Made by a program: the position numbers and the translations under genes
Assembly (NCBI GenBank): GCA_048359995.1
Contig: DBGCPK010000010.1
Coordinates: 9,860-73,859, forward strand
Direction of reading: 5' to 3'
DNA length: 64,000 nucleotides
Source of the DNA: Bacilli bacterium
GTDB lineage: Bacteria > Bacillota_I > Bacilli_A > RFN20 > CAG-449
Notes under the pieces: model-generated
The model's database searches: none
What the model was told of the DNA's origin: nothing
What the model saw: the letters and a program-made list of their open reading frames with translations, nothing else
Shown here: positions 26,966 through 58,134 of the stretch, piece after piece
How positions within the stretch are numbered: position 1 is the stretch's first letter
Layout of the letters: each line of letters begins with the position of its first letter

Positions 26966-26978
26966 AATGGTTTGCGAA

Positions 26979-27007: not shown

Positions 27008-27061
27008 ATTTTGACTTCGGTTTATGACATAATAAAGTTGATATGGAAGGAGAAACGGAGA

Positions 27062-27973: not shown

Positions 27974-27980
27974 ATAAAGA

Positions 27981-30900
27981 ATGCTGGAATTAAAAAACGT
28001 CACGAAAATTTATCATCTGAAAAAAGCCGAAGACGTCGTCGCGCTCAACGATATCAGTTTGAAATTTCCGGATAAAGGAATGGTTTTCATCTTGGGAAAA
28101 TCCGGCTCGGGAAAATCGACATTTCTCAATGTCGTCGGAGGTTTGGATTCTTTCGACAAAGGCGAAATTATCATCAACGATCGATCCAGCAAGGGGTTTT
28201 CTCAAAGCGATTTCGATTCTTATAGAAATACTTATATCGGCTTTATCTTTCAGGAATACAACATTTTCGAAGAATTATCGGTCAGAAAAAATATCGCTTT
28301 GGCTTTGGAATTGCAAGGAAAGAGCGCAAGCGAAGAGGAGATTAAAAGAATCCTGAATCTCGTCGACCTCGAAGATCTGGAGGAAAGAAAGCCGAAAGAA
28401 CTTTCGGGTGGTCAAAAGCAAAGGGTGGCGATCGCCCGTGCAATCGTCAAAAACCCTCAGATTATCATGGCGGATGAACCTACGGGAGCTTTGGACAGCC
28501 AGACGGGGAAACAGGTTCTCACTACATTGAAAAACCTTTCCGAAGACAAATTGGTCGTCGTCGTTTCCCACGATCGCGAATTCGCGGAAACTTACGCGGA
28601 TCGGATCGTCGAATTCAAGGACGGAAAAGTGATTTCGGATGTGACTTCCGGAATCGATCGAAGAGCGATTTCAGGATTCGAACGCCGAGAAAAGAAATGG
28701 ATTCGGATAAGAAAGAATCACGTCTTGTCTTCGGAAGAGAAAGAAGAAATTATTCGTTTCATCGAAAATAACGAAAACGACACGCTGGTTTCTTTCGAAC
28801 CCGAAATCAGCCGAAAAATCGATACGCAAGGAGAATTTTTCGGCGCGGAGTCGCGCTTTGTGCCGACCGATGAAAGTCGGATTGAAAGAGACGAAAAAAA
28901 ATTTACGACGATCAAATCGAAACTTTCTTTTCGGAATTCCTTTATCTTCGGTCTCAACTCGATGAAAGTCAAACCGTTTCGATTGATTTTGGTCATTCTT
29001 CTTTCCTGCATTTCTTTCGGTCTTTTCGGATTCGTCGATACGCTGTCGTCTTACAGTGCGACGAATACGATCGTCAATTCGATCGTCAGCACGAATATCG
29101 ACTACGCTTCTTTTACCAAGAATTATACTTTTTATCACTGGATTACCAATCTGAACAGTGAAAAAACGGTGATGACCGGCTTTTCGGGAACTAAGGATAT
29201 TGCCTATTTGAACGAATGTTTCAATCTCGATTTCAAAGGCGTATACAAGAATACCGAAGTCGGCGATTTTTCGCTGACGAACAATATGCTGAGGGATTAT
29301 CACGAAGCGAATAGTTACTATGTCAACGAACTTTCCGGTTTGATCGAGGCGGACGAAAAGACGTTGAAATCCCTGAACTATCATCTTGCCTACGGACGTC
29401 TTCCCGAGAATCCCGACGAAATTTGCCTGACGGACTACACATACAGCCTTTTCAGAGAACAGGGATATTATAATCATTTCGACACGTCGGATCGACTTTT
29501 GATCAGCGAGATGACGCCTTATGAAGAGTATATGGACGAAAATACTTTGGTTGTCAACGCTTCGACAGGGGAATATCGAACTTTATTTGTCAATAATCAA
29601 GAATTTAAGATCGTCGGCATCCTCCATACCGGATTCGACTTCGATAAGTACGAGATTCTGATCGACAACATCGACGACTCTTCTTATAAATATCTGAACG
29701 AAAACTATCAGTTGAATATCCGTTACGGATATCACAATCTAGGTTATCTCGCGCCGGGTTCGCTTTCGACGATCGTCGAAGAAAATCAACTGAGCCTTTT
29801 GAACGCATTGACGACTTTTCGTCTGGAAACGGCGAATGTACGGAATGGTTTTTCGTTTTCATACATCGGAAAATACGATCAGATTCCGGAGCAGACGGTG
29901 GTGAAAGACGATGTTTCTAAATTAAGCGATCAGGAAACGATCGTCTCCGATTCGTTCCTTTTCGATCGCGGCGGTTTGCAGTCGAAAATGCAAGGAATCG
30001 CGTTGATGAGCGAAGACGCGGAATTCTACGGAGTATCCAATCTGGCGGACGCCTATTCGCTGATTAAAGAAAAGATGATCGAAGACTACGCGAATCTTCA
30101 CCCTGATGAAGCGGCGGCGTACAATCCTTACGGAGGAACGGAACGATATATTCAATTTTTAAGCGATGAAGGAACGGGCTATTACGTCAATCCATACGGT
30201 ACTTCCGGATATGAATTGATTTCTCGGGAGAAAAAACGACTGCTGAGCGCCTATAAAGACGAAATTTTTCAGATCACCTTTCAAATTTCGATTGCCGATG
30301 CGAACGCATATTTAGAAGAGGCAAAACAATACAAAATGAATATTGTCGGCTTTTACGTGGCGAATAACGATGTTTCCGGGAAATGCCTGATCTTATCCGA
30401 CGAGAATTACGGACATTATGTCGGCGTGGAAGAAAGTTATTACGCTTTCGTGATCGCAAAGATGCCGAAGAGCAGAGGCACAATCCGCCGTTTGGTAAAT
30501 TTTGAAGACAGTGAATCGGATATCTATTATTGCATGAATAACGAATCCAAAATCGCGATCGACGTTTTGGACGCGACATTGGAAGCGTCGCGGGATATTT
30601 GTTTCTATATCGGCTTGGCTTTATCTGCTTTTTCCGTTTTGTTTTTATTCAATTTCATAAGTGTGTCGATTTCCAATAAAAAGCACGAGATCGGAATTCT
30701 TCGCGCGATCGGTTCGCGATCGAGAGACGTTTTGAAGATTTTTTTCACGGAAAGCTTCATTATTGCCATGATTAACTTCCTTTTATCGACTATCCTTTTG
30801 AGCGTCGTTTCGGCGGTCGGAAACGCCGTTATGCAAAGATTTACCGGATTATCTGTCGCTTTGTTCTCGCCAGGAGTCCGACAATTTGGTATAATGTTAT

Positions 30901-30989
30901 TGATCAGTTGTTTGATTGCTTATATTTCCTGCGCGCTTCCGGTTTATTCGGTCGCGAAGAAAAAACCGATTAACGTTATCAAGGGGTAA
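27981..30989 (+). CDS. Fused ABC ATPase / FtsX-MacB-type permease (1002 aa)
   Basis: Walker A GKSGSGKST, signature LSGGQKQRVAIARA, Walker B IIMADEPTGALD. One TM at about aa 335, a roughly 500-aa ectodomain, and a C-terminal FtsX-like block (HEIGILRAIGSRSRDV) with 3 TMs. Confidence 0.85.
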   Translation: MLELKNVTKIYHLKKAEDVVALNDISLKFPDKGMVFILGKSGSGKSTFLNVVGGLDSFDKGEIIINDRSSKGFSQSDFDSYRNTYIGFIFQEYNIFEELSVRKNIALALELQGKSASEEEIKRILNLVDLEDLEERKPKELSGGQKQRVAIARAIVKNPQIIMADEPTGALDSQTGKQVLTTLKNLSEDKLVVVVSHDREFAETYADRIVEFKDGKVISDVTSGIDRRAISGFERREKKWIRIRKNHVLSSEEKEEIIRFIENNENDTLVSFEPEISRKIDTQGEFFGAESRFVPTDESRIERDEKKFTTIKSKLSFRNSFIFGLNSMKVKPFRLILVILLSCISFGLFGFVDTLSSYSATNTIVNSIVSTNIDYASFTKNYTFYHWITNLNSEKTVMTGFSGTKDIAYLNECFNLDFKGVYKNTEVGDFSLTNNMLRDYHEANSYYVNELSGLIEADEKTLKSLNYHLAYGRLPENPDEICLTDYTYSLFREQGYYNHFDTSDRLLISEMTPYEEYMDENTLVVNASTGEYRTLFVNNQEFKIVGILHTGFDFDKYEILIDNIDDSSYKYLNENYQLNIRYGYHNLGYLAPGSLSTIVEENQLSLLNALTTFRLETANVRNGFSFSYIGKYDQIPEQTVVKDDVSKLSDQETIVSDSFLFDRGGLQSKMQGIALMSEDAEFYGVSNLADAYSLIKEKMIEDYANLHPDEAAAYNPYGGTERYIQFLSDEGTGYYVNPYGTSGYELISREKKRLLSAYKDEIFQITFQISIADANAYLEEAKQYKMNIVGFYVANNDVSGKCLILSDENYGHYVGVEESYYAFVIAKMPKSRGTIRRLVNFEDSESDIYYCMNNESKIAIDVLDATLEASRDICFYIGLALSAFSVLFLFNFISVSISNKKHEIGILRAIGSRSRDVLKIFFTESFIIAMINFLLSTILLSVVSAVGNAVMQRFTGLSVALFSPGVRQFGIMLLISCLIAYISCALPVYSVAKKKPINVIKG

Positions 30990-31002
30990 AGGAGAAAAAA
31001 AT

Positions 31003-32115
31003 ATGCAAAATGAAATCGTCACGGCATCGATATTCAAACGGGTCGGCGCAGCCGTTCTCGACGCGATTTTGATTTTTATTTTTATCGTTTTGATGCAAAG
31101 TTGGGTAGTCGTTCCGATCGCCGACGCTTGCTTCGGATACTCGGACACGCAACAGGAGTACCGCGATAAATTGGTGGAAAGCGGAATGTACGTCGAGTAT
31201 TCTTCCTCCGGAAATGACAGCGAAAAGGCCGTCTATCCGATTACCGCGGCTGCGCTTTACGACGCGACAACCGGGAAAGATAATCTAAACGATCGCACTT
31301 GTTCCGCGTTCGATTATTACGAACCGTTCTTTTCGACTTTTGTCGCTTCTCCTTACGGACAATACAACATCGCGGGCAAAGGTGAAACCGAGGAGAGTTT
31401 TTCCGAAGAATTTATCAGAGCAAAAAGCGAAGCCGAAAACCTATTCGTTTTAAGCGGTGAAACCTATGTTCCTGTCGAAGGTGCAACCAACGAGAAACTG
31501 GCTGAATTTTACGTCAATCAATATGACAATTTTGTCGGCGTTGCTTTATATAATGTAAATGGGGAAATCTATTCTTTGGCACTGGAAATCAACAATATTT
31601 CGATTTGGGGCTTGATTATAACCGGAACTTTGGCTTTCGTCATCTTCTCTTTGGTTATTCCGCTTTGCCGTAAAAACGGTGAGACGATCGGAAAGATGAT
31701 TGTCGGCAGCGCGGTGGTTTCCAGAAAAGACGGGTTCCGCGTCAGAAAAACGCAGACTTTGATCCGCTTCGTTTCTTTCTTCTTTCTGGAAATCGTCTTG
31801 TCGGTTATGCTTGGAAATTTTGCCTTGATTCTGGTAATGCTCCCGCTTTTGGCTTCGTTTACTTTCGTGATTTTCAGCAAATCGCATTGCGCTTTCCACG
31901 ATTACTTCGCCGCGACTGTTGTCATCGATAAAAACAAGTGCATCGTTTACAAAAACGCCGAAGAACTCAACGAACACCTGCTGCAATTGAAGGCAATCGA
32001 AGAACAGGACGTCTATCGCGTCAAAGATAAAGATAATGATCCGGAAGTTTTTGAATCCGGAGCATTCGCACAAAGCGCGTCCGAAGAGGGCGCCGAAACG
32101 GACAAGGACTCATAG
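31003..32115 (+). CDS. Second RDD-family membrane protein
   Basis: FKRVGAAVLDAILIF, GETIGKMIVGSAVV, CAFHDYFAATVVID. ATG at 31003 follows GGAGAAAAAA. Confidence 0.65.
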   Translation: MQNEIVTASIFKRVGAAVLDAILIFIFIVLMQSWVVVPIADACFGYSDTQQEYRDKLVESGMYVEYSSSGNDSEKAVYPITAAALYDATTGKDNLNDRTCSAFDYYEPFFSTFVASPYGQYNIAGKGETEESFSEEFIRAKSEAENLFVLSGETYVPVEGATNEKLAEFYVNQYDNFVGVALYNVNGEIYSLALEINNISIWGLIITGTLAFVIFSLVIPLCRKNGETIGKMIVGSAVVSRKDGFRVRKTQTLIRFVSFFFLEIVLSVMLGNFALILVMLPLLASFTFVIFSKSHCAFHDYFAATVVIDKNKCIVYKNAEELNEHLLQLKAIEEQDVYRVKDKDNDPEVFESGAFAQSASEEGAETDKDS

Positions 32116-32130
32116 CATGAGTTCTTTTTT
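32108..32130 (+). terminator. Candidate intrinsic terminator overlapping the stop codon
   Basis: actcat / agc / atgagt, then tcTTTTTT. Confidence 0.45.
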
Positions 32131-32209
32131 GTGGTAGTTGGTATAAAATCCGACCTTGAATTGGGTTTTATATTGATGTACAATATAATCAGAATTTGGA
32201 GGATTGCTA

Positions 32210-33322
32210 ATGGAAATTCGATTAGAACACTTGACTAAACAATTCCCGGGAAGTAAGAAAGGCGAGCAAGGCACAATCGCCGTCAACGATCTTGACATTA
32301 CGATTCCTGACGGAAAGTTAGTCGGGTTATTAGGTCCATCCGGCTGCGGGAAATCGACGACGCTGTATATGATTTCCGGCCTGTTGGAGCCGACTTCCGG
32401 ACACATTTGGTTCGGAGACGACGATGTCACAAACCTGACTCCGGATAAAAGGGGCATCGGTCTGGTATTCCAGAATTATGCGCTTTATCCGCATATGACG
32501 GTTTACAAGAACATCGCGTTCCCTCTTGAAAACCTGAGAGTGGAAGAAGAGAAAAATGGTAAAAAAGTTAAGAGAAAACTGACCAAGGTCGAAATCGACG
32601 CAATGGTCAAAGAGGCTGCGAATCTCGTTCAGATTGCCAATCTTCTCGATCGGAAGCCGAATCAACTCTCCGGCGGACAGCAACAACGGGTGGCTATCGC
32701 CAGAGCGTTAGTCAAAAAGCCGAAGGTTCTTCTTCTCGACGAACCGTTATCCAATTTGGACGCCCGTTTGAGATTGCAAACCAGAGAGGAAATCCGCCGC
32801 TTGCAGAGAGAAACCGGTATTACCACCATTTTCGTTACTCACGATCAAGAAGAAGCGATGTCGATTTCCGATGAAATCGTCGTGATGAAACTCGGTGTCG
32901 AACAGCAGAGAGACGTTCCGCAGGAAGTATATAATAACCCGAAAAATTTATTCGTCGCTCAGTTCTTGGGAACTCCGCCGATCAACGTATTCCACGGAAC
33001 GATCAAAAAGCACAAGGTCTATATCGGCGACGAGGCGATTCTTTCGTTGGATAAATCGATTGCCGATCAAGAAGTGTACGTCGGTATTCGACCGGAAGGA
33101 TTTATCGTCGAAGAAAACGGACCGTTGCACGTCAAAGTCGAACAGATCGAAACGTTGGGAAGAGATATCTCCATCGTCGGATCGCACGAAGCCAATTTGA
33201 AACCGTCCTTTAAAATCATTGTCGATTCGGATAATAAAGTTTCGATCGGAAATGTTTCTTTGTCGGTTAAGAAACATAAATGCTACATTTTCAATAAAGA
33301 AACCGAAGAAAGGATTGCATAA
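32210..33322 (+). CDS. Carbohydrate-type (CUT1, MsmK/UgpC/MalK-like) ABC transporter ATPase
   Basis: GPSGCGKSTT, LSGGQQQRVAIARAL, LLLDEPLSNLDA, and a C-terminal regulatory (TOBE-like) domain. GGAGGA precedes the ATG at 32210. Confidence 0.9.
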   Translation: MEIRLEHLTKQFPGSKKGEQGTIAVNDLDITIPDGKLVGLLGPSGCGKSTTLYMISGLLEPTSGHIWFGDDDVTNLTPDKRGIGLVFQNYALYPHMTVYKNIAFPLENLRVEEEKNGKKVKRKLTKVEIDAMVKEAANLVQIANLLDRKPNQLSGGQQQRVAIARALVKKPKVLLLDEPLSNLDARLRLQTREEIRRLQRETGITTIFVTHDQEEAMSISDEIVVMKLGVEQQRDVPQEVYNNPKNLFVAQFLGTPPINVFHGTIKKHKVYIGDEAILSLDKSIADQEVYVGIRPEGFIVEENGPLHVKVEQIETLGRDISIVGSHEANLKPSFKIIVDSDNKVSIGNVSLSVKKHKCYIFNKETEERIA

Positions 33323-33324
33323 TT

Positions 33325-34263
33325 ATGGAGTCTAAGAATAACTGGAAGGCTTGGTTATATTTAGCTCCGGCTATTATCCTGTTATTGATTTTTACTTTCT
33401 ATCCTCTGATCAATACGATCTTGATCGCATTTGCCAAAGATTATAATATCTACGCCAATGAAACGGCGTTGGGCGCGATTTTCCGTACCGGATTTACGTT
33501 TGATAATTTCGGATATGTGCTGGGGGTAAAAGGAATTTCGTACAACGGGCAGGTGCTCTACGATAAGACCGTTATCGAATTTGCGTTGCCGAACACGTTG
33601 ATTATCGTCTTCGTTACCGTTCCGCTTTCGATTCTGATCGCTCTTCTGATCGCGGTGGGAATCAATTCGATCAAGTGGTTTCAGAAAATATTCCAGACGA
33701 TTTTCTTCATTCCTTACGTTACCAACTCGATTGCCATTGGTATGGTATTCGCGGTCATTTTCGCGGGGACTAACGGTCTGTGGAACTCGATTTTCCACTT
33801 GGGAAATGTAAGTTGGGTGGATATGGGGGCAAGCCGTCTCAACGGTATGCTCGCGCTCTGCGTCTACATCATTTGGCACGCGTTGCCGTATAAAATTCTG
33901 ATCTTTCTTTCCGGTTTGCAGGGAATCGACAAGCAATACTATCAGGCTGCGCAGATCGACAGCGCTTCGAGAAGCAAAACTTTCTTCCGCGTAACCGTGC
34001 CGCTGCTTTCGCCGCAGATCGTATACGTGATGATCACTTCGCTGATCGGATCGTTCAAAGAGTATTCTTCGATCGTCGCCTTATTCAACGGTCAAGGAAC
34101 TTCTTCGGGAAGTTACAATATGTATACGATCACTTATTACATTTACGACAATATTTCCCAAGCGCCGACAAGGGCTTCCGCCGCCGCGGTTCTTCTGTTT
34201 ATCATCATCATGTTCTTCACGGTGATTCAGAGACAGGTTTCCGCGAAACGGGTGCATTATTAG
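33325..34263 (+). CDS. ABC transporter permease (MalF/UgpA-like)
   Basis: 6-TM binding-protein-dependent permease with an EAA-like loop (QAAQIDSASRSKTFFRVTVP). Confidence 0.85.
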   Translation: MESKNNWKAWLYLAPAIILLLIFTFYPLINTILIAFAKDYNIYANETALGAIFRTGFTFDNFGYVLGVKGISYNGQVLYDKTVIEFALPNTLIIVFVTVPLSILIALLIAVGINSIKWFQKIFQTIFFIPYVTNSIAIGMVFAVIFAGTNGLWNSIFHLGNVSWVDMGASRLNGMLALCVYIIWHALPYKILIFLSGLQGIDKQYYQAAQIDSASRSKTFFRVTVPLLSPQIVYVMITSLIGSFKEYSSIVALFNGQGTSSGSYNMYTITYYIYDNISQAPTRASAAAVLLFIIIMFFTVIQRQVSAKRVHY

Positions 34264-34275
34264 GAGGTATAAAGG

Positions 34276-35352
34276 ATGAAAAATTTTATGAATAAAGTGA
34301 AATCCTTCTTCTCCAATATCAAAGAGACCATCGCCAAACCTTTCAAGAAAAAGGAATTCACGGCCGAACAATTGGCTCAGGTCAATACTTCTTCGATCGT
34401 TCTCGTCATCAAAGAGGGAAATATCAGCGAAGAAAAACTGGAAAAAATATCCAAAGCAGGTAAGATTATTTTCACTACAATTACATATGTCTTCCTGGTT
34501 TTGATGGCTATCGTCGTCATCATTCCGTTCTACTGGATGCTGGCAACTTCGTTGAAATCGATCTACGAAGTCAGGGATACGATCACTTACTATCCGCATG
34601 ACTTTATGTGGGTAAACTATTCCGTATTGTTCAAAGGGGCGCCGATCGGCACTTATCCTTTGGGTAACGGTCAAATGAACTCGTACAAGATCGCGGCGTT
34701 TCCGTTCTGGACTTATTTGAAAAATACCTTGATTGTCGGTATTCTTTCTACGCTTGGAACGGTAATTACTTCGATTCTCGCGGCATTTGCTTTCTCCAGA
34801 TTGAATTTCAAAGGGAAAGATTTCCTCTTCACCTGCTTCTTGGCGACGATGATGATTCCGGGAGAGATGATGGTGATTACTAACTATATCACCGTCGCGC
34901 AGTTGGGATGGTTGGAAAACAACGTCGGCATTTACGCCTCGATGATCGTTCCGTTTATCATCTCGGTGTTCTACATCTATTTGCTGAGACAGAATTTCAA
35001 GCAGATTCCGAACGAATTGTATTATGCGGCTAAAGTGGACGGGAAGACGGACTGGGCTTATCTTTGGAAAGTTATGGTTCCCCTCGCGGCACCGACTTTG
35101 ATTACGATCTTTATCTTAAAACTGATGGGCGCTTGGAACTCTTACGTGTGGCCGAATCTGGTTACCAATTCGGAGAGTATGCGTTTGATCACCAACGGAC
35201 TTCGCGCTTATTCGGGAAGTGCCGACGGAACGACCAATCAACCGCTTCAAATGGCGGCTACGGTTATCGTAACGTTACCGCTTCTTCTGTTGTTCATTTT
35301 CTTCCGAAAATACATTATGAAAGGCGTCGGACGCGCCGGTATCAAAGGGTAA
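34276..35352 (+). CDS. ABC transporter permease (MalG/UgpE-like) with an N-terminal extension
   Basis: EAA-like loop YYAAKVDGKTDWAYLWKVMVP. Confidence 0.85.
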   Translation: MKNFMNKVKSFFSNIKETIAKPFKKKEFTAEQLAQVNTSSIVLVIKEGNISEEKLEKISKAGKIIFTTITYVFLVLMAIVVIIPFYWMLATSLKSIYEVRDTITYYPHDFMWVNYSVLFKGAPIGTYPLGNGQMNSYKIAAFPFWTYLKNTLIVGILSTLGTVITSILAAFAFSRLNFKGKDFLFTCFLATMMIPGEMMVITNYITVAQLGWLENNVGIYASMIVPFIISVFYIYLLRQNFKQIPNELYYAAKVDGKTDWAYLWKVMVPLAAPTLITIFILKLMGAWNSYVWPNLVTNSESMRLITNGLRAYSGSADGTTNQPLQMAATVIVTLPLLLLFIFFRKYIMKGVGRAGIKG

Positions 35353-35399
35353 TAAAACGATTGCGTTTTGTTATATGAGTAAAAGAAAGGAAATTTTAA

Positions 35400-36866
35400 A
35401 TGAAAAACAAGTTAATTAAAACTTTGTGTGCTGCGACATTGCTGACAATATCCTGTACGGCACTCGCGGGCTGCGGAAATTCGAACTCAGGAAAAACCGT
35501 AGTTACTTTCTGGCATACGATGGGACAAGCGAACCAGCAAACTTTGAATAATATGATTGCTGCGTTTAATGCGATTCCAGGGAACGAAAACATCAAAATC
35601 GAACACGATCAGCAGGGAGGATATGCCGACATCTATGAGAAACTGCAAAAAGCGATTCCGGCAAAAACGACCCCGGTTATGGCGTATTGCTATCCGGATC
35701 ACGTGGCCGATTACATCGATGCCGGCGCGGCCGTCAAACTCGACGATCTGATCAACGATCCGGAAATCGGTTACACTTCGACGGGAAAAGCAACCACCGA
35801 TCCGGATTACAAGGTTGAAGACGATTTGAACGACTTCATTACTTCGTTCTTGCAAGAAGGACGGGAATATTCGACGGAAGGAACATACTCGTTGCCTTTC
35901 TCCAAATCGACGGAAGTTCTGTTCTATAACGAAACTTATCTGGTGGAACACGGCTACGTCGACAGCGAAGGGAATGCCGTCGTTCCGACAAAATGGGAAA
36001 ATGAAAGCGATCCGGACGATCTGACGGCAATCATCAACCTTGCCAGAAAGATCAAAGCGAACGACAGCGCGATTATCGCGCCGTTAGGTTACGATTCCGA
36101 TGATAACTTGTTCATCACTTTTGCCAAGCAGTTGGGGCTTCCGTATACTTCGATCGGGAGCGACGGAAGAGGTCAATTCGATTTCAACACCGCCGAAGTC
36201 AAGGCGATGGTCGAAAAAGTAAAAGGCTGGTACGACGAGGGGTTGATCAAGACCCAAGGAACGATCGAAAGTCAGTCGTATACATCGACTTATTTCAAAA
36301 AACAGCAATTGATTTTCTCGATCGGATCAACCGGCGGAACTACCTATAACGAACCGAGCAAGGATTCGGACGGACAATACGAATTCCAGGCCAAAGTCGC
36401 CGCGATTCCGCAATGGGGAGAAACTTCTTATTGCATTTCTCAGGGACCTTCGATCGTCTTCTTCCAAAACAAAAAGATTTCGGACGAACAACTTCGCGCG
36501 GCTTTCAAATTCTACAAATTCATCACCAACCCTGAAAATTCCGCGGCATACTCGATCTTGACGGGATATGAACCGGTTAAACAATCTTCGTATACGACTT
36601 CCGCTTACGTGTCTCACTTGAATCCGGTCGATGTGACAACTCAGGAACCGTTGGAGGATAACGAACTCGAACTGAAAACCCGCGTTGCCAGAATGACGCA
36701 AACGCTGAAAGACGATTACTTCGTTTCGCCGGCTTTCGTCGGTTCGGCTACGGCTCGTACTCAGGTCGGCGGTATCATCACGCAGGTTCTTCTCGGACAA
36801 AAAGGAATCGATCTGGCTTTCAACGATGCTTTGACACAATGCGCCTTTGCTTTACCGCTTCAATAG
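35400..36866 (+). CDS. Extracellular solute-binding lipoprotein (family 1 type)
   Basis: Lipobox LAGCGNS. VTFWHTMG start typical of CUT1 binding proteins. 488 aa. Confidence 0.8.
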   Translation: MKNKLIKTLCAATLLTISCTALAGCGNSNSGKTVVTFWHTMGQANQQTLNNMIAAFNAIPGNENIKIEHDQQGGYADIYEKLQKAIPAKTTPVMAYCYPDHVADYIDAGAAVKLDDLINDPEIGYTSTGKATTDPDYKVEDDLNDFITSFLQEGREYSTEGTYSLPFSKSTEVLFYNETYLVEHGYVDSEGNAVVPTKWENESDPDDLTAIINLARKIKANDSAIIAPLGYDSDDNLFITFAKQLGLPYTSIGSDGRGQFDFNTAEVKAMVEKVKGWYDEGLIKTQGTIESQSYTSTYFKKQQLIFSIGSTGGTTYNEPSKDSDGQYEFQAKVAAIPQWGETSYCISQGPSIVFFQNKKISDEQLRAAFKFYKFITNPENSAAYSILTGYEPVKQSSYTTSAYVSHLNPVDVTTQEPLEDNELELKTRVARMTQTLKDDYFVSPAFVGSATARTQVGGIITQVLLGQKGIDLAFNDALTQCAFALPLQ

Positions 36867-36876
36867 GTGATTCGCT

Positions 36877-38277
36877 ATGATTTTACATAAAAAAATCAAA
36901 TCATTGCTGATGGCGCTGTTGTTGGTGTTCTCTGCGGTTACCGCTTCGACGGCTCTCACCTCTTGCGGAGGGACAGTGAAGAAAATCGATTATACCGGTC
37001 AAACGCGGATCATAAGCGAAGAATGGAAGACTTCCAATTTCATTCAAAACGGTGTCGGAGTCGTCGATCTGTACAAATGCGTCGACGGAGATACCGCGCA
37101 CTTCACGTTAGGCGACCATTTGATTCAGGGGAGATTCAACGGAGTAGATACTCCTGAATCTACCGGAATCTTGGAGAAGTGGGGATTGCAAGCGAGCAAT
37201 TTTACAAAAGAAAAACTTCTCAATGCCAAAACGATCGTTCTGGAAACCGAACCGAACAATACGGCTTTGGGTCCTGAACAGGACGGGAACGGCCGCTATT
37301 TAGTTTGGGTATGGTATTCGGATCGCACACCGGAAGAAGAGGACGGAAGTCAGTTGTATCTTCTCAATCTTCAATTGGTGCAGGAGGGATTTTCCCTCAC
37401 GAAGGGAGTTTCCGGAAGCGCTTATGCCGACGTGATCTACGACGCCGACGCGCAAGCGCAGAAATTGAAAATCCACCTCTATTCCGACGATGAAGATCCT
37501 TTGTTCTATGAAGGCGATGCCATCGTCAACGAACTCGATGTGTATCAGCATCCGGAGGAATATGTCGGCAGAAAAGTTTATCTGACAGGCGTCGTTACCC
37601 GGACTTTGGGCGATAACGCGTACATTCAAAAGACGCTTTACGACGAAGAAGACAATGAAATCGGTACTTACGGAATTTATATCTTTACTCAGTATAAGAA
37701 GTACGACATTCTCTCCAAAGGTAACGAAATCTCGGCGACGGGAACGATCGCGGAAAGATACGGCGCGTATCAGTTGATTAACGTGTCTTATTCCAATGTC
37801 GACACTTTGAAAGGAGAAGATGATATGGTTCTCCTTTCCATCGGGAATGCGGTCAATCCGCTTCTCATCACTGCATCGGAAGCCAATACAAACTCGTATA
37901 TGGGTGTTTTGGTTACGATTGAGAATCTTACGATTACCGGCGGTTACGGCGGATATGATAACAATTTCGCGGAATGTATGGAATCTCCGGACGCATCGCA
38001 GGAATATTGTATATCGAATTCCAGCAATGCGATGACGCTCTACGCCGTGCAGACGGATCCTGATACTCAGGCGAAGGTAGATTTCTGCATTCGGATAGAC
38101 AGTTCCACTTTTATCAAAAAGAAAAGCGGAGCGACGGTCAAAGACTACAACTATTTTGTAGGACAAACGCTAACACTTACTGGGGTAATGAGCATGTATG
38201 AAAGCGAAAAAACGGGGAACAACACCATTCAAATGATGCTTCTTGCGACCAGCGATATTATTTATATCAGCGAATAA
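36877..38277 (+). CDS. Lipoprotein nuclease: SNase (thermonuclease) domain plus OB-fold-like modules
   Basis: Lipobox LTSCGG. VDGDTAHF...GRFNGVDTPES...GRYLVWVW matches staphylococcal nuclease catalytic landmarks (D21, R35, D40-T41, E43, R87). Followed by VYLTGVVTR..NAYIQ..YGIYIFT OB-like segments. Confidence 0.75.
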   Translation: MILHKKIKSLLMALLLVFSAVTASTALTSCGGTVKKIDYTGQTRIISEEWKTSNFIQNGVGVVDLYKCVDGDTAHFTLGDHLIQGRFNGVDTPESTGILEKWGLQASNFTKEKLLNAKTIVLETEPNNTALGPEQDGNGRYLVWVWYSDRTPEEEDGSQLYLLNLQLVQEGFSLTKGVSGSAYADVIYDADAQAQKLKIHLYSDDEDPLFYEGDAIVNELDVYQHPEEYVGRKVYLTGVVTRTLGDNAYIQKTLYDEEDNEIGTYGIYIFTQYKKYDILSKGNEISATGTIAERYGAYQLINVSYSNVDTLKGEDDMVLLSIGNAVNPLLITASEANTNSYMGVLVTIENLTITGGYGGYDNNFAECMESPDASQEYCISNSSNAMTLYAVQTDPDTQAKVDFCIRIDSSTFIKKKSGATVKDYNYFVGQTLTLTGVMSMYESEKTGNNTIQMMLLATSDIIYISE

Positions 38278-38291
38278 AGAAAGGAAAAAGA

Positions 38292-40337
38292 ATGAAAAAA
38301 TTCAAAATTTTAACTCTAAGCACGGTTGCGCTTCTGGCAATGGGAAGCGTTGTCGGTTGTGGCGGAAAAAAGGATGACAAAGATTCTCCGGAAGAGATTC
38401 TTGCCAGCGCCAAAGCGGCATTGGTATTCCCGAATTTGACAACGGGTGTCAAAGCAAGTTTTGATCTTTACGATACGCTCGACGGAGTGTCTATCACTTA
38501 TTCGATCGCGAACACCTATACCGTTGCACAAGGAACGCTGACGGAAACCGTTACTGCGGCATGTCCTTATATTTCGATCAGCGAAGACAACAAAACGGCG
38601 AATATCACACCGGCTTATTTGAAAGATTCGGTTACCATCAATGGAGAATCCGTAACGGTTGACAATACTTGGTATGCCACGACCGTTTTGACCGCGACGC
38701 TTACCTACGGCGATCTTACCGATACGAAAAAATTCAACATCAAGATCGTTCCTACTGCCAAAGTGATGACTTACAGTGAATTCATCGCGGCTCAGAACAA
38801 CAGCGCGATCTGCATTCAGGTTATCATCGACAAGGTCGGTATCGAGAGAAAATACAACTACAATCTCGCTTGGGGTCATGATCAAGCAGGCAATGCGTAC
38901 TATATGTACAACATTCCGAACACCTATATGACCGACGATTTGGTCGCAGTCGGAAACGAAGTCATTATGACCGGTTCCAAGAGCATCTACTCCGGATTCC
39001 ACGAATTGCAGAAAGCCGACGGCGTCATGTTAGTGAACAAAGATTCCTCTTATGTTGCACCTGAATTCCAAGACGTCACCGCCGATTTGAATGCCGCTGA
39101 GTCGATGGATTCCAAAGATTTGGTCAAATATCAGGCCGCGCCGATAAAGATCCAGAACCTTATCGTCGCTAAAACACCGGAAATTCCGGCAGTTCAGACA
39201 AATGAAACTTACGGACAATACTACGATACATTCAGCATTGTCTGTACGTTAGGAGAAGGCGGAAAAGAATTCAGCCTCAGAGTGAGCAGAGCCGCCGACG
39301 ATCCTGTCGCATTGGTCGATGTGGTCAAGACGCTGCAAGTCGATGATGTCCTCACCGTTAAGGGATGGGGCGAATGGTATAACGAATTGCAACTGACTAT
39401 GCTCGCTACCGATTCGATCACCAAAACCGGAACGATCTCCAAAACGGACGATGAAAAACTGGCCGGTGCGAAAACCGCAGCGGAAGAAAAACTTCCGGCT
39501 ACCGCAATCGTAAGCAATTTCAACTTACCGATTACAAGCACTTACAATTCGACGATTGCTTGGACTTCCAGCAATACGGACGTTCTCGCTATCGATAACG
39601 AAACAGGTCTCTGCACGATTACTCCAAGTTCGACGGAGGATGTGGTCGTAACCTTAACCGGTACGCTTACCATTCCGGGTATCGAAAATACGATCGAGAT
39701 TACCAAAGATGTAACGGTATCGCGAGTTGTCACTTCGACTATTCTCAAAGCCAGAATGGCTGCGGATGCAAGTTCGACAGAGGCGATGGAGATTACCGGT
39801 GTTGTTACCAACGTTCAGGGAACTTCGTTCTACATCGACGACGGTGAATCCGCGATCATGGTTTACAATTTGACCGGTCATAACTATGTCAAGGGCGATG
39901 TGGTTGCTCTCACTTCTACGGTGACGAGCTACAATGGTCTCTATGAAACGACGAGCAAAGGCGTAACCGCTCATGAAAAATTGACGGATTCGGATCTCGT
40001 TGCCAGAGAGGCTTTGGTTCTGACTGCCGATAACTTCTCTGCCGATGCCTTGAAGGGCGAAGACAGCAGATTGGTATCCGCTTCCGGCTTAGTGTTGAAA
40101 TCAGTGACTACGGCGGCAAGTACTGCTTCCAGCGGACTATATGTCTTCTCATTGGGAAGCGTAGATGTCACGATTACTGTGAACAAGTATGCGTACAATG
40201 TCACAGAAATTGCTGAGAAATTGGCAACTTTGAATGTCGGAGACACGATTGACGTCGTCAATGCCAACTTGGGTTGGTATAAAGTACCGCAAATCGATAT
40301 TTGCGAAGTCGATTCCATCGTTATTCCAAACGCATAA
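38292..40337 (+). CDS. Large surface lipoprotein with repeated OB-fold-like and Ig-like modules; no catalytic motif seen
   Basis: Lipobox VVGCGG. Segments such as MEITGVVTNVQGTSFYIDDGESAIMVYNL..GDVVALTSTVTSYNGLYE resemble the OB modules of the flanking nuclease. NSTIAWTSSNTDVLAID is Ig-like-repeat-like. Confidence 0.5.
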   Translation: MKKFKILTLSTVALLAMGSVVGCGGKKDDKDSPEEILASAKAALVFPNLTTGVKASFDLYDTLDGVSITYSIANTYTVAQGTLTETVTAACPYISISEDNKTANITPAYLKDSVTINGESVTVDNTWYATTVLTATLTYGDLTDTKKFNIKIVPTAKVMTYSEFIAAQNNSAICIQVIIDKVGIERKYNYNLAWGHDQAGNAYYMYNIPNTYMTDDLVAVGNEVIMTGSKSIYSGFHELQKADGVMLVNKDSSYVAPEFQDVTADLNAAESMDSKDLVKYQAAPIKIQNLIVAKTPEIPAVQTNETYGQYYDTFSIVCTLGEGGKEFSLRVSRAADDPVALVDVVKTLQVDDVLTVKGWGEWYNELQLTMLATDSITKTGTISKTDDEKLAGAKTAAEEKLPATAIVSNFNLPITSTYNSTIAWTSSNTDVLAIDNETGLCTITPSSTEDVVVTLTGTLTIPGIENTIEITKDVTVSRVVTSTILKARMAADASSTEAMEITGVVTNVQGTSFYIDDGESAIMVYNLTGHNYVKGDVVALTSTVTSYNGLYETTSKGVTAHEKLTDSDLVAREALVLTADNFSADALKGEDSRLVSASGLVLKSVTTAASTASSGLYVFSLGSVDVTITVNKYAYNVTEIAEKLATLNVGDTIDVVNANLGWYKVPQIDICEVDSIVIPNA

Positions 40338-40356
40338 TCATCTTAGATGAAAAAGG

Positions 40357-40385
40357 GACAGGCTGAATCAGCCTGTCTTTTTTTG
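40357..40385 (+). terminator. Intrinsic terminator
   Basis: gacaggctg / aat / cagcctgtc, then T7. Confidence 0.8.
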
Positions 40386-40468
40386 TCGATTTGGAAGTCA
40401 TTCATTTAATCTATATTATTTTTTTTCTTTTTTTGCTATAATGATTTTGAAAGAAAAAGGTTGATGTT

Positions 40469-41614
40469 ATGGCTAAAAAAAATGTAAAATGGATGGTAAT
40501 TGCTTTGGCGATCGTCGCAACTTCGCTGACATCTTGCTCGAAAAATAAAAGTTCTGTGACTCATTCGGATCTTTTGATCAGCGAATACTTGGAAGGAACG
40601 GGAAGCAATCGGGCGATCGAATTGTACAATAAAGGTGACGAAGAGATTGATCTTTCCGGATATAAGGTCTGCATTTATCTTCGCGGCGATACTAATCCGG
40701 GATATACGATTGATCTCGAAGGTTCTTTGTCTTCCGGAGAAGTATTTGTCATCGCCCATCCGGACGCTGAAAAAGACATTTTGGATAAAGCCGATCAAAT
40801 CAGCGAAAAACTGATGTTCAACGGATCGCAGCAGATCGCTTTGATAAAAGGAAAAAAAGTGATCGATTTAATCGGAATTATGGGAACCACCTATTCCTAC
40901 GAAAGCGATGTTACTTTGGTCAGAAAGACATCTTTTATGGAAAGCAAGAACGTTTGGGACGAATACGATTGGATCCGCTATTCGGTGGATAACTTCAATT
41001 ATTTAGGAAATGCCACCAATTCGGTTACCGCGGAAGAGTTAGAAACAGGTCCGAAAATCAATGAGATCTACCTCAGTTATCCTTTTATCAAAGATGCGGA
41101 AAAAGAAATCACCGGCGGCGGATTCATCGATGTTGAACTCTATGCAGGAGTTGACGGGGATACGGCCAGATTCTATTATCCTGCTTTAACCGGCATCGAA
41201 GACGGAACGAAAGTTCGTTTTCAGAACATCAATACACCGGAAAGTTATACCGCCAACGTTCAACCTTGGGGTATACCTGCGAAGTTTTGGGTAACCGAAA
41301 GATTGGAAGAAGCGACGAGAATTCAACTGCAATCGCAGTACAACGGAACATTATATGAAAATTTCGATCGCGTTTTGGCGTGGGTCTGGACGGATGGAGA
41401 ATTGCTCAATTATAAAATCGTCAAAAAAGGATTATCCGATATTGCTTTCGGAACGACAGACAATTTGGTTTATAAAGATATTACATATACGAATTGGCTC
41501 TATGATGCCAGCTTGTACGCTAAAAGAAACGGTTTGGGAATCTGGGGTGAAAAAGATCCGTACTGGGATTATGAAAACAATAAATCAACCTATGACGGAT
41601 ATTTTGAGATCTAA
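40469..41614 (+). CDS. Lipoprotein with a lamin-tail-domain (LTD) and an SNase domain
   Basis: Lipobox LTSCS. LLISEYLEGTGSNRAIELYN...IDLSGY is LTD-like. VDGDTARF...VRFQNINTPES...DRVLAWVW is the SNase core, with Asn at the D40-equivalent position. Confidence 0.75.
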   Translation: MAKKNVKWMVIALAIVATSLTSCSKNKSSVTHSDLLISEYLEGTGSNRAIELYNKGDEEIDLSGYKVCIYLRGDTNPGYTIDLEGSLSSGEVFVIAHPDAEKDILDKADQISEKLMFNGSQQIALIKGKKVIDLIGIMGTTYSYESDVTLVRKTSFMESKNVWDEYDWIRYSVDNFNYLGNATNSVTAEELETGPKINEIYLSYPFIKDAEKEITGGGFIDVELYAGVDGDTARFYYPALTGIEDGTKVRFQNINTPESYTANVQPWGIPAKFWVTERLEEATRIQLQSQYNGTLYENFDRVLAWVWTDGELLNYKIVKKGLSDIAFGTTDNLVYKDITYTNWLYDASLYAKRNGLGIWGEKDPYWDYENNKSTYDGYFEI

Positions 41615-42301
41615 TTTTTCTGCGATTTTCATATAAATATCGTTAGCGGCCGAGTAGTTTTCCATTTTGATATGGATAAAATACTGTATGCAGAAATCGT
41701 TGAAATCGGAAAAGAAATCCCGATAGGTTTCCGGACAAAAAGATCGGATTCGTTCGGCATGCGCGGAAAGTTTTTTCAGATGTTCGGATATCGCGTTTTC
41801 GTCTTCTTGGGAAAGGATGTCATCGAAATTCATCAGCGTTCGATAATAATTTTCTGTTTCCGCGATGATTTTTTCGTCGTTGCATAGACGGCTTAGAGAT
41901 CGTCGCAACCACAAAAGGTTGCTTTTCTCATAGGATTCGTAAATTGACGGAAGAAAAGCTTTGATTAAAATAGCTTCTTTGCATTGACCGACTAATACGA
42001 CAAAAGGAAGAAGCGAGCATCGAAGATCTTTTTCTTTTGGCTTTTCTGAGGCAATTTCGACTTTTGTTTCTTCTGGTTGAGTTTTTGTTTTCGGACAATT
42101 GTCGATCGCCTTTCGTTCTGTTTCCGTTTCTTCCGATGGCGAATAGGGAATTTTAATCGGAATATTGCTGATCTTCACTTTGTTTTTCAGCAAGGGATTA
42201 AAGATATACAGCAGTTGCTTGGTGATGTGAAAACGTTCGCAAATGCTGTCCACTGTGTCGCTTTCATTGGCAATATAAATTTTGATCGAATAGTCTTTCA
42301 T
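41585..42301 (-). CDS. Hypothetical protein with an N-terminal LysM-like segment
   Basis: KIYIANESDTVDSICERFHITKQLLYIFNPLL...IPIKIP resembles a LysM motif. The remainder is unassigned. Confidence 0.4.
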   Translation of the reverse strand: MKDYSIKIYIANESDTVDSICERFHITKQLLYIFNPLLKNKVKISNIPIKIPYSPSEETETERKAIDNCPKTKTQPEETKVEIASEKPKEKDLRCSLLPFVVLVGQCKEAILIKAFLPSIYESYEKSNLLWLRRSLSRLCNDEKIIAETENYYRTLMNFDDILSQEDENAISEHLKKLSAHAERIRSFCPETYRDFFSDFNDFCIQYFIHIKMENYSAANDIYMKIAEKLDLKISVIG

Positions 42302-42408
42302 TTTTTTATCCTCTTCATAAATCTATGTGAGAATCGAAAAAAATATCTTTATTTCTTTGAAAATCGGGTATGCTCATTTATAATACAATGGGAAAAGGAA
42401 TTCGAAGT

Positions 42409-43029
42409 ATGCAAAAACCGATATTAATCTGCGTTGCGGGAGGTTCTGCAAGCGGGAAAACGACGTTAGTGAATGAAATCGCCGCCGCATTTCACGGAAA
42501 GGATATCGTTATTCTCAAACACGACGACTATTATCGCGATCAATCGCATCTCAGTCTGGAAGAAAGAAAGAAAACCAATTACGATCATCCGAGTTCTTTG
42601 GAAAACGAGTTGCTGATCCGACATTTGAAGGATTTGCTGAATGGAAAAAGCATTGACAAACCGATTTATGATTTCGTCGCGCAGACACGAAGTCCGGATA
42701 CGGAAAAAGTTAATCCGGGCAGAGTGGTGATTCTTGACGGTATTTTGGTTTTGGAAGATCCGGATATTCGCGCTTTGGCTGACATCAAGGTGTTCGTCGA
42801 ATGCGATGAAGACCTTCGCTTAATTCGGAGAATCCGTCGAGATATGATCGAAAGAGGCCGTTCGTTTGACGGAATCATTCATCAGTATCTGAGTACGGTC
42901 AAACCGATGTATCATAGTTTTGTCTCTCCGAGCAAGAGATACGCGGATATTATCATTCCAAACGATTTTTCGCATTCGGTGGCTACCGATTTGCTGATTG
43001 AAAAAATCAAGTCGATTTTGGATAAATAG
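42409..43029 (+). CDS. udk: Uridine kinase
   Basis: ILICVAGGSASGKTT; DDYY; ILDGIL; RRIRRD. ATG at 42409 preferred. Confidence 0.9.
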   Translation: MQKPILICVAGGSASGKTTLVNEIAAAFHGKDIVILKHDDYYRDQSHLSLEERKKTNYDHPSSLENELLIRHLKDLLNGKSIDKPIYDFVAQTRSPDTEKVNPGRVVILDGILVLEDPDIRALADIKVFVECDEDLRLIRRIRRDMIERGRSFDGIIHQYLSTVKPMYHSFVSPSKRYADIIIPNDFSHSVATDLLIEKIKSILDK

Positions 43030-43069: not shown

Positions 43070-43145
<76 letters not shown>

Positions 43146-43147
43146 TT

Positions 43148-43181
43148 TAAAAAAATGTATGGATAAATCCATACTTTTTTT
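43148..43181. terminator. Bidirectional-looking intrinsic terminator
   Basis: A-run, gtatgga / taaa / tccatac, then T7. Confidence 0.7.
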
Positions 43182-43227
43182 AATAGATGATACAGAAATG
43201 ATACGGGTTTTTAAAGAAAAAGGGGAA

Positions 43228-43990
43228 TTAAATCCCCGAATTTAATAGATCAATTAACTGATCGATTTTGTCAATAATTGCTTTTTGCCTTTCTTTCGTC
43301 ATATCGATATAAACGTCCATAGTAACGTTATGAAACTTATGTCCGAGATACTTTCCGATGTCTTCAAAGGATATTCCTTCGGAGTAGAGATAACTGGCTA
43401 TCCCGTGTCGCAGTCCATGCGGAGTAATGTGTTCCAGTTGATGAGTTTCTTCCAAATGATTCAAATACCTTCGGACCGATGTTCCTGATATCGGATTGTC
43501 TTTCTTTCGGATATAGAACAAGCGATGAACATCTTTCAAACGATGCGTTTCGACATAATTTTGGAAAAGCGCAATATACTTGTCGGAAAGAAGATACTTT
43601 CTTATCGACGATGCGCTTTTCGGAACAAGATCGATCGACTGATTCAAACCGCATTTGCAAGTGGTTACTTTATAAATCGATAAAATCTTTTTATTTAGAT
43701 CGAAGGCTTTGACTTCCAATCCACGAACCTCGGATTCATAATTCTTTCTTTCGATGATTTTTATAGGATTCTACAAGGTCAAAAAAATAAAAATCTTTCT
43801 GAATCGCCTTTTTCTTTGAATCCTTCTGATGATTTGACGATCCTTCTATACGAAAGAGAGCCTCGGCTTGAACAGTCTCTTTTCTGGAAGAGAATCCTCT
43901 ACGAAGGAACTGACGTCCGTTGATCGAGCATTTAAAGAACCACGTTCCGTTTTTGCTTTTATACGCTGGCATAATCATTAGAAATTCCAT
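43228..43990 (-). pseudogene. Tyrosine recombinase (phage-type integrase), disrupted and internally shortened
   Basis: ORF 43736..43990 is an Arm-type N-terminus (YKSKNGTWFFKCSINGRQF). ORF 43228..43719 is the catalytic domain (HGLRHGIASYL ... LGHKFHNVTMDVYIDM). The two are in different frames and most of the core-binding domain is missing. Confidence 0.75.
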
Positions 43991-44214
43991 CTCGAACGAT
44001 ATAGCCAGTCACTGGCCAAATCCCGTTCGTCACTACCGCCGGAACGATCGCTGCATGTGAGATCGGAAACAAATTGCTCGATGATTCTTCTCGGCGTGAC
44101 CTTCCAGTTTTCATCTGATACAAAATTTGCCGCCAACCATATCGAAAGATATTCTGCATGGTCTTTCAAACATTCATACTCTTCTTCCGTTAATTCAATC
44201 TTTATTGTTTTCAT
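43978..44214 (-). CDS. Small hypothetical protein next to the integrase remnant
   Basis: AAGGAGG precedes the ATG (MKTIKIELTEEEYE...). 78 aa. No motif recognised. Confidence 0.4.
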   Translation of the reverse strand: MKTIKIELTEEEYECLKDHAEYLSIWLAANFVSDENWKVTPRRIIEQFVSDLTCSDRSGGSDERDLASDWLYRSRWNF

Positions 44215-58125: not shown

Positions 58126-58134
58126 CCTCCACAT

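Follow-up and report, generated by a model that had tools for sequence, protein, structure and literature searches.

What does a sugar-type ABC transporter import when its genes are joined to genes for nucleases on the cell surface? This question is raised by a locus in a 64,000-nucleotide stretch of DNA from an uncultured gut member of the Bacilli (contig DBGCPK010000010.1 of GenBank assembly GCA_048359995.1, positions 9,860 to 73,859). We call this whole stretch the window and give coordinates within it unless another locus is named. At 32210-41614 seven co-directional genes on the + strand encode an ATPase, two permeases, a substrate-binding protein (SBP), a lipoprotein with a staphylococcal nuclease (SNase) domain followed by two OB folds (SNase-OB-OB), a non-catalytic lipoprotein of 681 residues, and a lipoprotein that combines a lamin-tail domain (LTD) with a second SNase domain (LTD-SNase). 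Reduced-genome gut Bacilli and mycoplasmas depend on external nucleotide sources, and to our knowledge there is no organism in which the cargo of such a nuclease-linked transporter has been identified. From sequence comparisons and structure models we propose that the locus would serve uncultured gut Bacilli to capture and digest nucleic acid at the surface and then to import dinucleotides or short oligomers, a model that we consider fairly probable. It leads to a testable cargo hypothesis, namely dinucleotides or short oligomers rather than nucleosides or sugars. This hypothesis is put forward because the nearest solved relative of the SBP is a dinucleotide-binding protein from Thermus, because the pocket is conserved in 95 SBPs, and because paired NrnA-like genes accompany about half of the related loci.

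Conservation of the gene order

Related loci are numbered here with the prefix L. A scan with the SNase-OB alignment as query and one genome per species yielded 80 of them. They were found in Bacilli metagenome-assembled genomes (MAGs), Liberiplasma polymorphum, Anaeroplasmataceae, Acholeplasmatales, Izemoplasmatales, Erysipelotrichaceae, Lachnospiraceae, Oscillospiraceae and Christensenellales, the closest Bacilli MAG loci being labelled Coprobacillus sp. CAG:826. The SBP gene was located immediately upstream of the SNase gene in all 80 loci, and the complete order ATPase-permease-permease-SBP-SNase was present in 65 of the 66 loci having at least 5.6 kb of upstream sequence. A reverse check from the SBP side gave the same arrangement, with an SNase gene adjoining each of the six sampled SBP homologues (39-47% identity). 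A first-pass annotation of the window had suggested a locus for nucleic-acid scavenging. This is supported in silico by the linkage of nuclease and importer (80/80 and 6/6 loci) together with the published models for Mycoplasma and Izemoplasmatales. That the gene order does not vary between Bacilli and Clostridia suggests that extracellular nucleic-acid feeding may be common in gut Firmicutes, and the SBP-SNase gene pair could be used as a metagenome marker for organisms that feed in this way.

For the slot following the SNase gene, position is conserved while sequence is variable. Homologues of the 681-residue protein formed only 8 clusters, all from gut or other metagenomes, on contigs with the order RDD - ATPase - permease - permease - SBP - SNase - 681-residue protein - LTD-SNase - udk. 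When this protein was used in tblastn, a similar gene was detected downstream in only 7 of 61 loci. Inspection of the open reading frames (ORFs) revealed that the slot nearly always holds a lipobox protein of 325-1178 residues with variable Ig/OB content, often including aBig_2/Big_2 domains and OB (PF01336) or LTD modules. An LTD(-SNase) gene was found downstream in 17 of 61 loci. Two tandem SBP paralogues preceded the SNase gene in 16 of the 80 loci; such loci were seen among L010, L012, L018, L022, L027-L041 and L093-L095.

Genes for RDD-family membrane proteins were always seen upstream of the operon on inspection (window 25781-32115; L010, L012-L020, L093-L095), and tblastn detected them upstream in 37 of 80 loci, Clostridia included. 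The upstream order is tuf - RDD - ABC/FtsX fusion (27981-30989, an insertion in the window) - RDD - operon. A functional tie between the RDD proteins and the importer is possible. Some locus-bearing records (L032, L033, L035, L037, L039, L049, L051) are titled Bacteroides uniformis, Hallerella, Sodaliphilus, Alistipes communis, Escherichia coli, Alloprevotella or Bacteroidaceae ('cleanbin' isolates). The loci are of Firmicutes type, and almost certainly these labels are wrong or the bins are mixed.

The binding protein and its proposed cargo

To gain insight into the cargo we compared the SBP with proteins of solved structure. At E<0.01 the PDB sequence comparison returned two groups only, namely entries of the T. 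thermophilus 7C0x series (E 2e-15) and the UgpB proteins of M. tuberculosis, E. coli and a marine bacterium; no oligosaccharide-binding SBP was among the matches. The PDB titles of the 7C0x entries read 'dinucleotide-binding protein of ABC transporter endogenously bound to uridylyl-3'-5'-phospho-guanosine' (UpG). The AlphaFold2 (AF2) model of the SBP had a predicted local distance difference test score (pLDDT) of 89.9, and its top 25 Foldseek matches all belonged to the 7C0x series, with template modelling (TM) scores of 0.82-0.85. UgpB proteins formed the second tier by sequence as well as by fold; sugar binders appeared among the lower Foldseek matches.

The residues mutated in the deposited 7C0x series are Y56, F79, N81, S127, Y224, T240, Y246 and Q274, and from the titles of these mutant entries we infer that they contact the ligand. 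In the HMMER alignment, for which a chain-index offset of +2 fits all eight residues, they correspond to Y75, Y98, D100, S170, Y294, S310, Y316 and Q348 of the SBP, five of which are identical and three conservatively replaced. Seven of the eight are invariant among 95 SNase-linked SBPs, which share 28-55% identity with the window protein and in whose alignment only 13% of the positions are at least 90% conserved. All eight fall on conserved positions of this SNase-linked family. In its pocket residues the SBP agrees with the dinucleotide-binding SBP of the 7C0F series. The position equivalent to Y246 holds Tyr in 66 and His in 29 of the 95 proteins. This split and the tandem SBPs may reflect two ligand preferences, e.g. 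for ribo- versus deoxy-forms or for length.

Given the match of its pocket to that of the T. thermophilus UpG binder, we propose that the SBP would capture dinucleotides or short oligonucleotides. Taken together, sequence and model favour a ligand with a phosphodiester, for instance a dinucleotide, over a free sugar or sn-glycerol-3-phosphate (G3P). That dinucleotides (or short oligonucleotides) are the actual cargo has in our judgement about an even chance. In holding that the sequence does not reveal the substrate, the first-pass annotation was too pessimistic, since relatives, fold and pocket of the SBP all bear on the ligand class. Its expectation that the transporter carries nuclease products instead of an ordinary sugar gained in silico support from the UgpB-clade and dinucleotide-binder relatives and the conserved pocket.

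Surface nucleases and probable cytoplasmic processing

In S. aureus nuclease Ca2+ is bound by Asp21, Asp40 and Thr41, while Arg35, Glu43 and Arg87 are catalytic. The end products of SNase digestion are 3'-mononucleotides and dinucleotides. In the SNase-OB-OB lipoprotein the SNase domain spans residues of about 58-205 (PF00565 E 3e-10; PDB thermonuclease E 4e-18) and the tandem OB pair residues of about 206-466. D70, D72, R86, D91, T92, E94 and R140 are invariant in 7 orthologues, and the catalytic set of SNase is present as D72, D91, T92, R86, E94 and R140. The LTD-SNase lipoprotein consists of a lamin-tail domain at about 28-190, which resembles the N-terminus of ExeM (N-terminal region of NF033680 at 19-179, E 4e-38), and an SNase domain at about 215-381 (PDB thermonuclease E 4e-17). 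Here D231, R250, T256, E258 and R301 are invariant in the alignment.

Of the 46 loci with at least 8 kb of flanking sequence, 25 have paired, signal-less DHH/DHHA1 (NrnA-like) genes at a distance of 2-8 kb downstream from the SNase gene. NrnA enzymes degrade oligomers of 2-5 nt (PMC9757072). The two NrnA-like genes of a pair are paralogous (e.g. L008 15866-17770, L025 14398-16296 and 29 of the loci L013-L092); they lie on the same strand in Bacilli and are convergent in Clostridia. The uridine/cytidine kinase gene udk is a loosely associated salvage-enzyme neighbour, which is kept beside the locus in the close relatives L001-L003.

The 681-residue lipoprotein

The AF2 model of the 681-residue protein, built on the family alignment (pLDDT 83.5), comprises a signal peptide, an Ig-like domain (44-155), OB1 (156-252), OB2 (253-383), a helix with the aBig_2 domain (384-478), OB3 (479-570) and OB4 (571-681), i.e. 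the layout (Ig-OB-OB)x2. BLASTP among its segments and the nuclease tail gave no significant match, such that a profile-profile comparison was needed to assess homology of the OB folds. With hhalign OB1-2 matched OB3-4 at 98.7%, and judged by these profiles the OB pairs are an internal duplication. The C-terminal half of SNase-OB-OB (206-466), which itself gave weak PF01336 and NucH matches, proved homologous to OB3-OB4 (hhalign 95.5%). PF01336 was detected below threshold in 3 of 7 members of the 681-residue family. The larger relative P0131 and the proteins occupying this slot in L019 and L065 exceeded the threshold, whereas that of L044 came just under the cut-off.

The best Foldseek match in the PDB was p204 HINab with dsDNA (E 4.5e-9). 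The other matches among tandem-OB DNA binders were the HIN domains of IFI16, AIM2, MNDA and p202, RADX with ssDNA, Teb1 and Pot1. The protein is not a member of the HIN-200 family: there was no Pfam HIN match, its isoelectric point (pI) is 4.4, and the resemblance is at the level of the fold. Ligands of OB folds usually bind to a face formed by strands 2-3 and loops 1-2 and 4-5. To these elements of the AF2 model map the invariant residues of OB1 (E185, K187, Y188, Y190, W194, H196, D197, N201, Y203, Y204, Y206, N207, H237, E238), an aromatic-rich set that would suit base stacking.

The first-pass annotation had described this protein as made of OB/Ig-like repeats and had proposed that it acts as a surface DNA receptor. 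The repeats were recovered in the model, and the noted lack of a catalytic motif agreed with our searches: a catalytic role was rejected, as Pfam, NCBIfam and fold search yielded no catalytic family. The receptor function, though supported in silico, is less secure for so acidic a protein. Judged from the fold and the homology to the nuclease OB pair, DNA binding has slightly less than an even chance. Should it bind DNA, the tandem-OB DNA sensors would have an analogue on the bacterial surface in this (Ig-OB-OB)x2 lipoprotein.

Proposed route and alternative cargoes

In the route that we propose, all four secreted proteins would reside as lipoproteins on the cell surface, as suggested by their conserved lipoboxes (Cys invariant in three family alignments and at least 90% conserved in the fourth) and by the presence of lgt within the window (61220-62032). 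The 681-residue (Ig-OB-OB)x2 protein, going by its fold and OB homology, would retain extracellular DNA or RNA at the surface. SNase-OB-OB and the separately transcribed LTD-SNase would cut the polymer to mono-, di- and short oligonucleotides, which should be 3'-phosphorylated because of the established chemistry of staphylococcal nuclease. Dinucleotides or short oligonucleotides would then be captured by the UgpB-clade SBP and imported by the UgpA/UgpE-like permeases and the UgpC/MalK-like ATPase. The imported molecules would finally be converted to usable nucleotides by cytoplasmic salvage kinases and DHH/DHHA1 enzymes of the NrnA type.

A number of observations weigh against this route. The UpG in the 7C0x crystals stems from the expression host, the identity between the SBP and this dinucleotide-binding protein is only 21-22%, and the pocket that they share consists in part of the generic phosphate site of UgpB. 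Strong acidity is common to all four secreted proteins (pI 4.2-5.1). The 681-residue protein contains 45 K+R versus 82 D+E, unlike the basic HIN domains, such that any DNA binding would need aromatic stacking or divalent-cation bridging. Its likeness to HIN is modest (TM 0.40-0.46 on the target, E 1e-5 to 4.5e-9, identity 8-13%), and the lower-ranked Foldseek matches include a glycoside hydrolase family 43 (GH43) arabinanase and S-layer proteins. In LTD-SNase the position of the Ca2+ ligand Asp40 is taken by Asn253, and the enzyme may have an altered metal dependence or a lower activity; the orthologues of L001, L008 and L010 have Asp at this position. Finally, no NrnA-like gene was found within the 64-kb window.

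The best surviving alternative is an importer of nucleosides, 3'-mononucleotides or nucleobases, for which the nucleases and unidentified phosphatases would digest the nucleic acid completely. SNase also yields 3'-mononucleotides and udk is adjacent, and for the equivalent SBPs of Izemoplasmatales such a cargo has been proposed by Wasmund et al. (PMC8289736). However, neither a 5'- nor a 3'-nucleotidase is encoded in the operon, and known nucleoside ABC importers have binding proteins of a different family, the PnrA/P48 type (PMC12892991). In addition, the pocket is like that of the dinucleotide binder with the phosphate site kept, and the locus-linked NrnA pairs act on short oligomers. We therefore regard a monomer cargo as unlikely.

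Still less likely is import of G3P or glycerophosphodiesters as by Ugp of E. coli and M. tuberculosis, in which case the nucleases would be co-located only through a shared role in phosphorus acquisition. The best NCBIfam matches of all four transporter parts are UgpC, UgpA, UgpE and UgpB, each under the equivalog cut-off (356 bits for the ATPase with NF008653 UgpC; 29 bits for the SBP with NF008211 UgpB, far under the cut-off of 411). In E. coli UgpB phosphate is bound by Y42, S121, S247, Y323 and R374, and the glycerol is clamped by Trp169 and Trp172. The five phosphate-binding residues map to Y75, S170, S310, Y390 and R453 of the SBP and are kept in 26 of 26 sequences; the E. coli sequence used for the mapping was checked only at the positions of the two Trp. 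The Tyr/Ser pairs of this site are supported by PMC12718374, which places the dinucleotide-binding protein, the glycerophosphocholine-binding UgpB of M. tuberculosis and the G3P-binding UgpB in one phosphate-recognising CUT1 clade. In the SBP family, however, the two Trp of G3P-specific UgpB are replaced by D/A/S (235) and F/Y/L (238). Moreover, the dinucleotide-binding protein, whose pocket residues are conserved, ranks above all UgpB proteins in the sequence comparison and in the fold comparison, and the 80/80 SBP-SNase adjacency and the nearby NrnA pairs fit a nucleotide cargo better.

An ordinary oligosaccharide importer, with the Ig/OB lipoprotein as glycan-binding or adhesin-like scaffold and the nucleases in an unrelated role (clearing of biofilm DNA, degradation of foreign DNA), would agree with the family annotation 'multiple sugar transport system SBP', the sugar binders among the lower SBP matches, the arabinanase and S-layer matches of the 681-residue protein and the acidity of the secreted proteins, but is very improbable given that neither the operon nor its immediate surroundings hold a gene for a glycoside hydrolase or for sugar catabolism, that no oligosaccharide SBP was matched at E<0.01 by sequence, and that the SNase gene order is invariant across Bacilli and Clostridia.

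Uptake of dinucleotides and short oligonucleotides may also be read more broadly. The loci would then form a very widespread, unrecognised class of nucleic-acid utilisation loci of gut and environmental Firmicutes (Bacilli MAGs, Mollicutes-like lineages, Lachnospiraceae, Oscillospiraceae, Christensenellales). In these, a tandem-OB protein would act as polymer receptor in a SusD-like role, a UgpB-clade importer would take up intact dinucleotides or short oligonucleotides that OB-tethered SNases produce at the cell surface, and a cytoplasmic NrnA pair would finish the digestion. We put this forward tentatively and would sooner wager against it than for it. If true, it would provide the first defined nutritional oligonucleotide importer and would name the cargo of the SNase-linked transporter of Mycoplasma.

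Relation to described systems

The window locus is of a type known before from Mycoplasma and Izemoplasma. The interpretation in the first-pass annotation was accordingly not new but restated the Mycoplasma MslA/SNase/ABC model, and its remark on Mycoplasma thermonuclease lipoproteins that are encoded beside ABC genes and scavenge nucleotides corresponds to this published model (PMC3585158, PMC4045577). MAG_5040 of M. agalactiae is an active SNase nuclease, whose gene shares a transcript with those of P80 and an ABC transporter (PMC3585158). For MslA, PMC4045577 reports binding of ssDNA and dsDNA, location in a 'putative nucleotide transporter operon' and a role in feeding an exonuclease and the ABC transporter. 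As in the MslA/P80 operon, an SNase surface lipoprotein in the window adjoins an SBP-like lipoprotein, an ATPase and two permeases of sugar/Ugp type; the Mycoplasma SNase lipoproteins are Mhp379, MAG_5040, MBOVPG45_0310 and MGA_0676. The window also has the same-strand adjacency of SNase, SBP-like, ATPase and two permease genes by which PMC3585158 defines the operon type. The order differs, being SBP-SNase-ATPase-permeases in Mycoplasma and ATPase-permeases-SBP-SNase in the window. The window locus has in addition an OB pair on the nuclease, the (Ig-OB-OB)x2 lipoprotein and the second nuclease LTD-SNase, and its host is not a Mycoplasma, with a standard genetic code and 45% GC. The N-terminal lobe of the SBP weakly matches Mycoplasma NF045826 lipo_P68 (E 2e-10, 39.6 bits versus a cut-off of 200, residues 2-178 only). 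P48 was considered as the relevant mycoplasma binding protein and rejected, because it is the PnrA-type SBP of another transporter, the mycoplasma nucleoside importer (PMC12892991).

For Izemoplasmatales, 'DNA-degradation loci' have been described in which nuclease genes are accompanied by genes for ABC transporters and for proteins with LTD and nucleic-acid-binding domains (Wasmund et al. 2021, PMC8289736). SBP homologues beside nucleases elsewhere were noted there as well, and 'nucleoside or nucleobase transporters' were proposed. Hujiaoplasma nucleasis possesses a nuclease/NrnA/ABC locus that is induced by DNA and RNA (PMC10470597). Compared by description, these loci share with ours the co-location of extracellular nucleases, LTD and nucleic-acid-binding proteins, ABC transporters and NrnA, and the Izemoplasmatales MAG loci L077 and L090 have the same ATPase-permease-permease-SBP-SNase order as the window. 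In the published loci binding, nuclease and LTD modules are fused in one 1,049-residue protein, whereas in the window they are distributed over three lipoproteins. The habitats are marine sediment and gut, respectively. The papers proposed a nucleoside or nucleobase cargo and did not tie the SBP to the dinucleotide-binding protein. As far as we found, this tie, the SBP-SNase pairing across Clostridia and Bacilli with NrnA pairs, and the (Ig-OB-OB)x2 fold are apparently absent from the papers on these loci.

We know of no nuclease linkage of the Thermus dinucleotide-binding protein. This protein (2021, as cited in PMC12718374) is the best solved relative of the SBP by sequence and fold; the window SBP is about 80 residues longer and a lipoprotein. 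With ExeM/NucH of Shewanella and Aeromonas the window nucleases share an N-terminal lamin-tail domain, OB-like DNA-binding modules and the character of a secreted nuclease for growth on extracellular DNA. The catalytic domain is an SNase domain in the window but has the endonuclease/exonuclease/phosphatase fold in ExeM/NucH, and only the N-terminal 160-180 positions of NF033680 and NF033681 were matched, which places the window proteins outside that family. They are also lipoproteins of a Gram-positive-type cell and belong to an operon with a dedicated importer. With HIN-200 proteins (AIM2, IFI16, p202, p204), Teb1, Pot1 and RADX the 681-residue protein shares consecutive pairs of OB folds. 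There is no sequence similarity, and this acidic, extracellular and lipid-anchored protein differs from the basic HIN domains of eukaryotes; the likeness is one of fold and not of family.

Organisation of the locus

The coordinates, strand and gene types of the first-pass annotation held, and Pfam and NCBIfam profile searches confirmed all domains it had named (Table 1). It had counted eight co-directional genes, of which we find seven, and had placed gaps of 2-48 nt between the first seven; only the first six are closely joined, with gaps of 2, 12, 47, 10 and 14 nt. They form a predicted six-gene operon (32210-40337), whereas the LTD-SNase gene is set off by a gap of 131 nt. Co-transcription of the six genes is predicted from their spacing and the terminator prediction, which gave no + strand terminator within 32210-40337. 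The MalK/UgpC-type ATPase with regulatory domain, the two BPD_transp_1 permeases and the SBP make up a CUT1 ABC importer (TC 3.A.1.1).

The terminator that had been noted before the LTD-SNase gene was recovered as an intrinsic terminator. Its predicted fold has a 16-bp stem of -21.8 kcal/mol (z = -5.0), none of 200 shuffled sequences folded equally well, and it can be read as a terminator on the opposite strand too. Behind this strong terminator the LTD-SNase gene is predicted to be separately promoted. Promoters internal to the operon were rejected, as the 29 promoter-like matches compare with 21.7 +/- 4.5 expected in shuffled sequence. Rfam at the gathering threshold revealed no riboswitch or leader RNA in the locus and only two tRNAs in the window. 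The distances to udk and dut, estimated earlier as about 0.8 kb and about 16 kb, agree with the measured ones.

Table 1. Positions of genes and signals of the importer-nuclease locus and its neighbours in the window
Feature	Position	Strand	Description
Terminator of upstream RDD gene	32104-32126		predicted
Promoter-like site	32156..32184	+	TTGAAT-17 nt-TACAAT; 3' of RDD-gene terminator, before six-gene operon
ATPase, UgpC/MalK type	32210..33322	+	ABC_tran (PF00005 E 1e-38) and C-terminal OB_MalK regulatory domain
Permease 1, UgpA/MalF-like	33325..34263	+	BPD_transp_1
Permease 2, UgpE/MalG-like	34276..35352	+	BPD_transp_1
Substrate-binding lipoprotein (SBP), UgpB clade of CUT1	35400..36866	+	SBP_bac_8; lipobox LAGC, Cys25
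SNase-OB-OB lipoprotein	36877..38277	+	PF00565 at residues 86-203; lipobox LTSC, Cys30
681-residue non-catalytic lipoprotein	38292..40337	+	Pfam: aBig_2 only; lipobox VVGC, Cys23
Intrinsic terminator closing six-gene operon	40350..40384	+	GGGACAGGCUGAAUCAGCCUGUC then U7
Extended -10 element	about 40434..40442	+	TGcTATAAT; read from sequence, putative promoter of LTD-SNase gene
LTD-SNase lipoprotein	40469..41614	+	PF00932 at 32-136, PF00565 at 248-360; lipobox LTSC, Cys23
udk (uridine/cytidine kinase)	42370..43029	+	756 nt past LTD-SNase stop; outside operon
dut	57327-57833		15.7 kb beyond LTD-SNase gene

On the minus strand a 238-residue ORF without Pfam match (41585-42301) shares 30 nt with the 3' end of the LTD-SNase gene. 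At the same position L001-L003 have a minus-strand gene of 193-195 residues.

Other features of the window

Following udk, a tRNA-Lys(CTT) gene (43070-43145) is succeeded by a truncated phage-integrase ORF on the minus strand (43228-43719) and a stretch of 37-39% GC. This region (43070-46000) looks like the remnant of an element integrated at tRNA-Lys. A second low-GC stretch (31-35%; 58000-62000) is located after tRNA-Leu(CAG) (58135-58219) and holds an FMN_red-NUDIX fusion (59191-60165) as well as the lgt gene mentioned above.

At the other end of the window an island (2428-11775) contains an AAA_14/DUF4143 ATPase (2428-3768) and the anti-plasmid system Wadjet, with JetA at 5180-6544, JetB/DUF4194 at 6710-7345, JetC at 7320-10601 and JetD at 10591-11775. 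Its GC content is 26-32% compared to about 45% in the rest of the window, for which reason the island was probably acquired horizontally.

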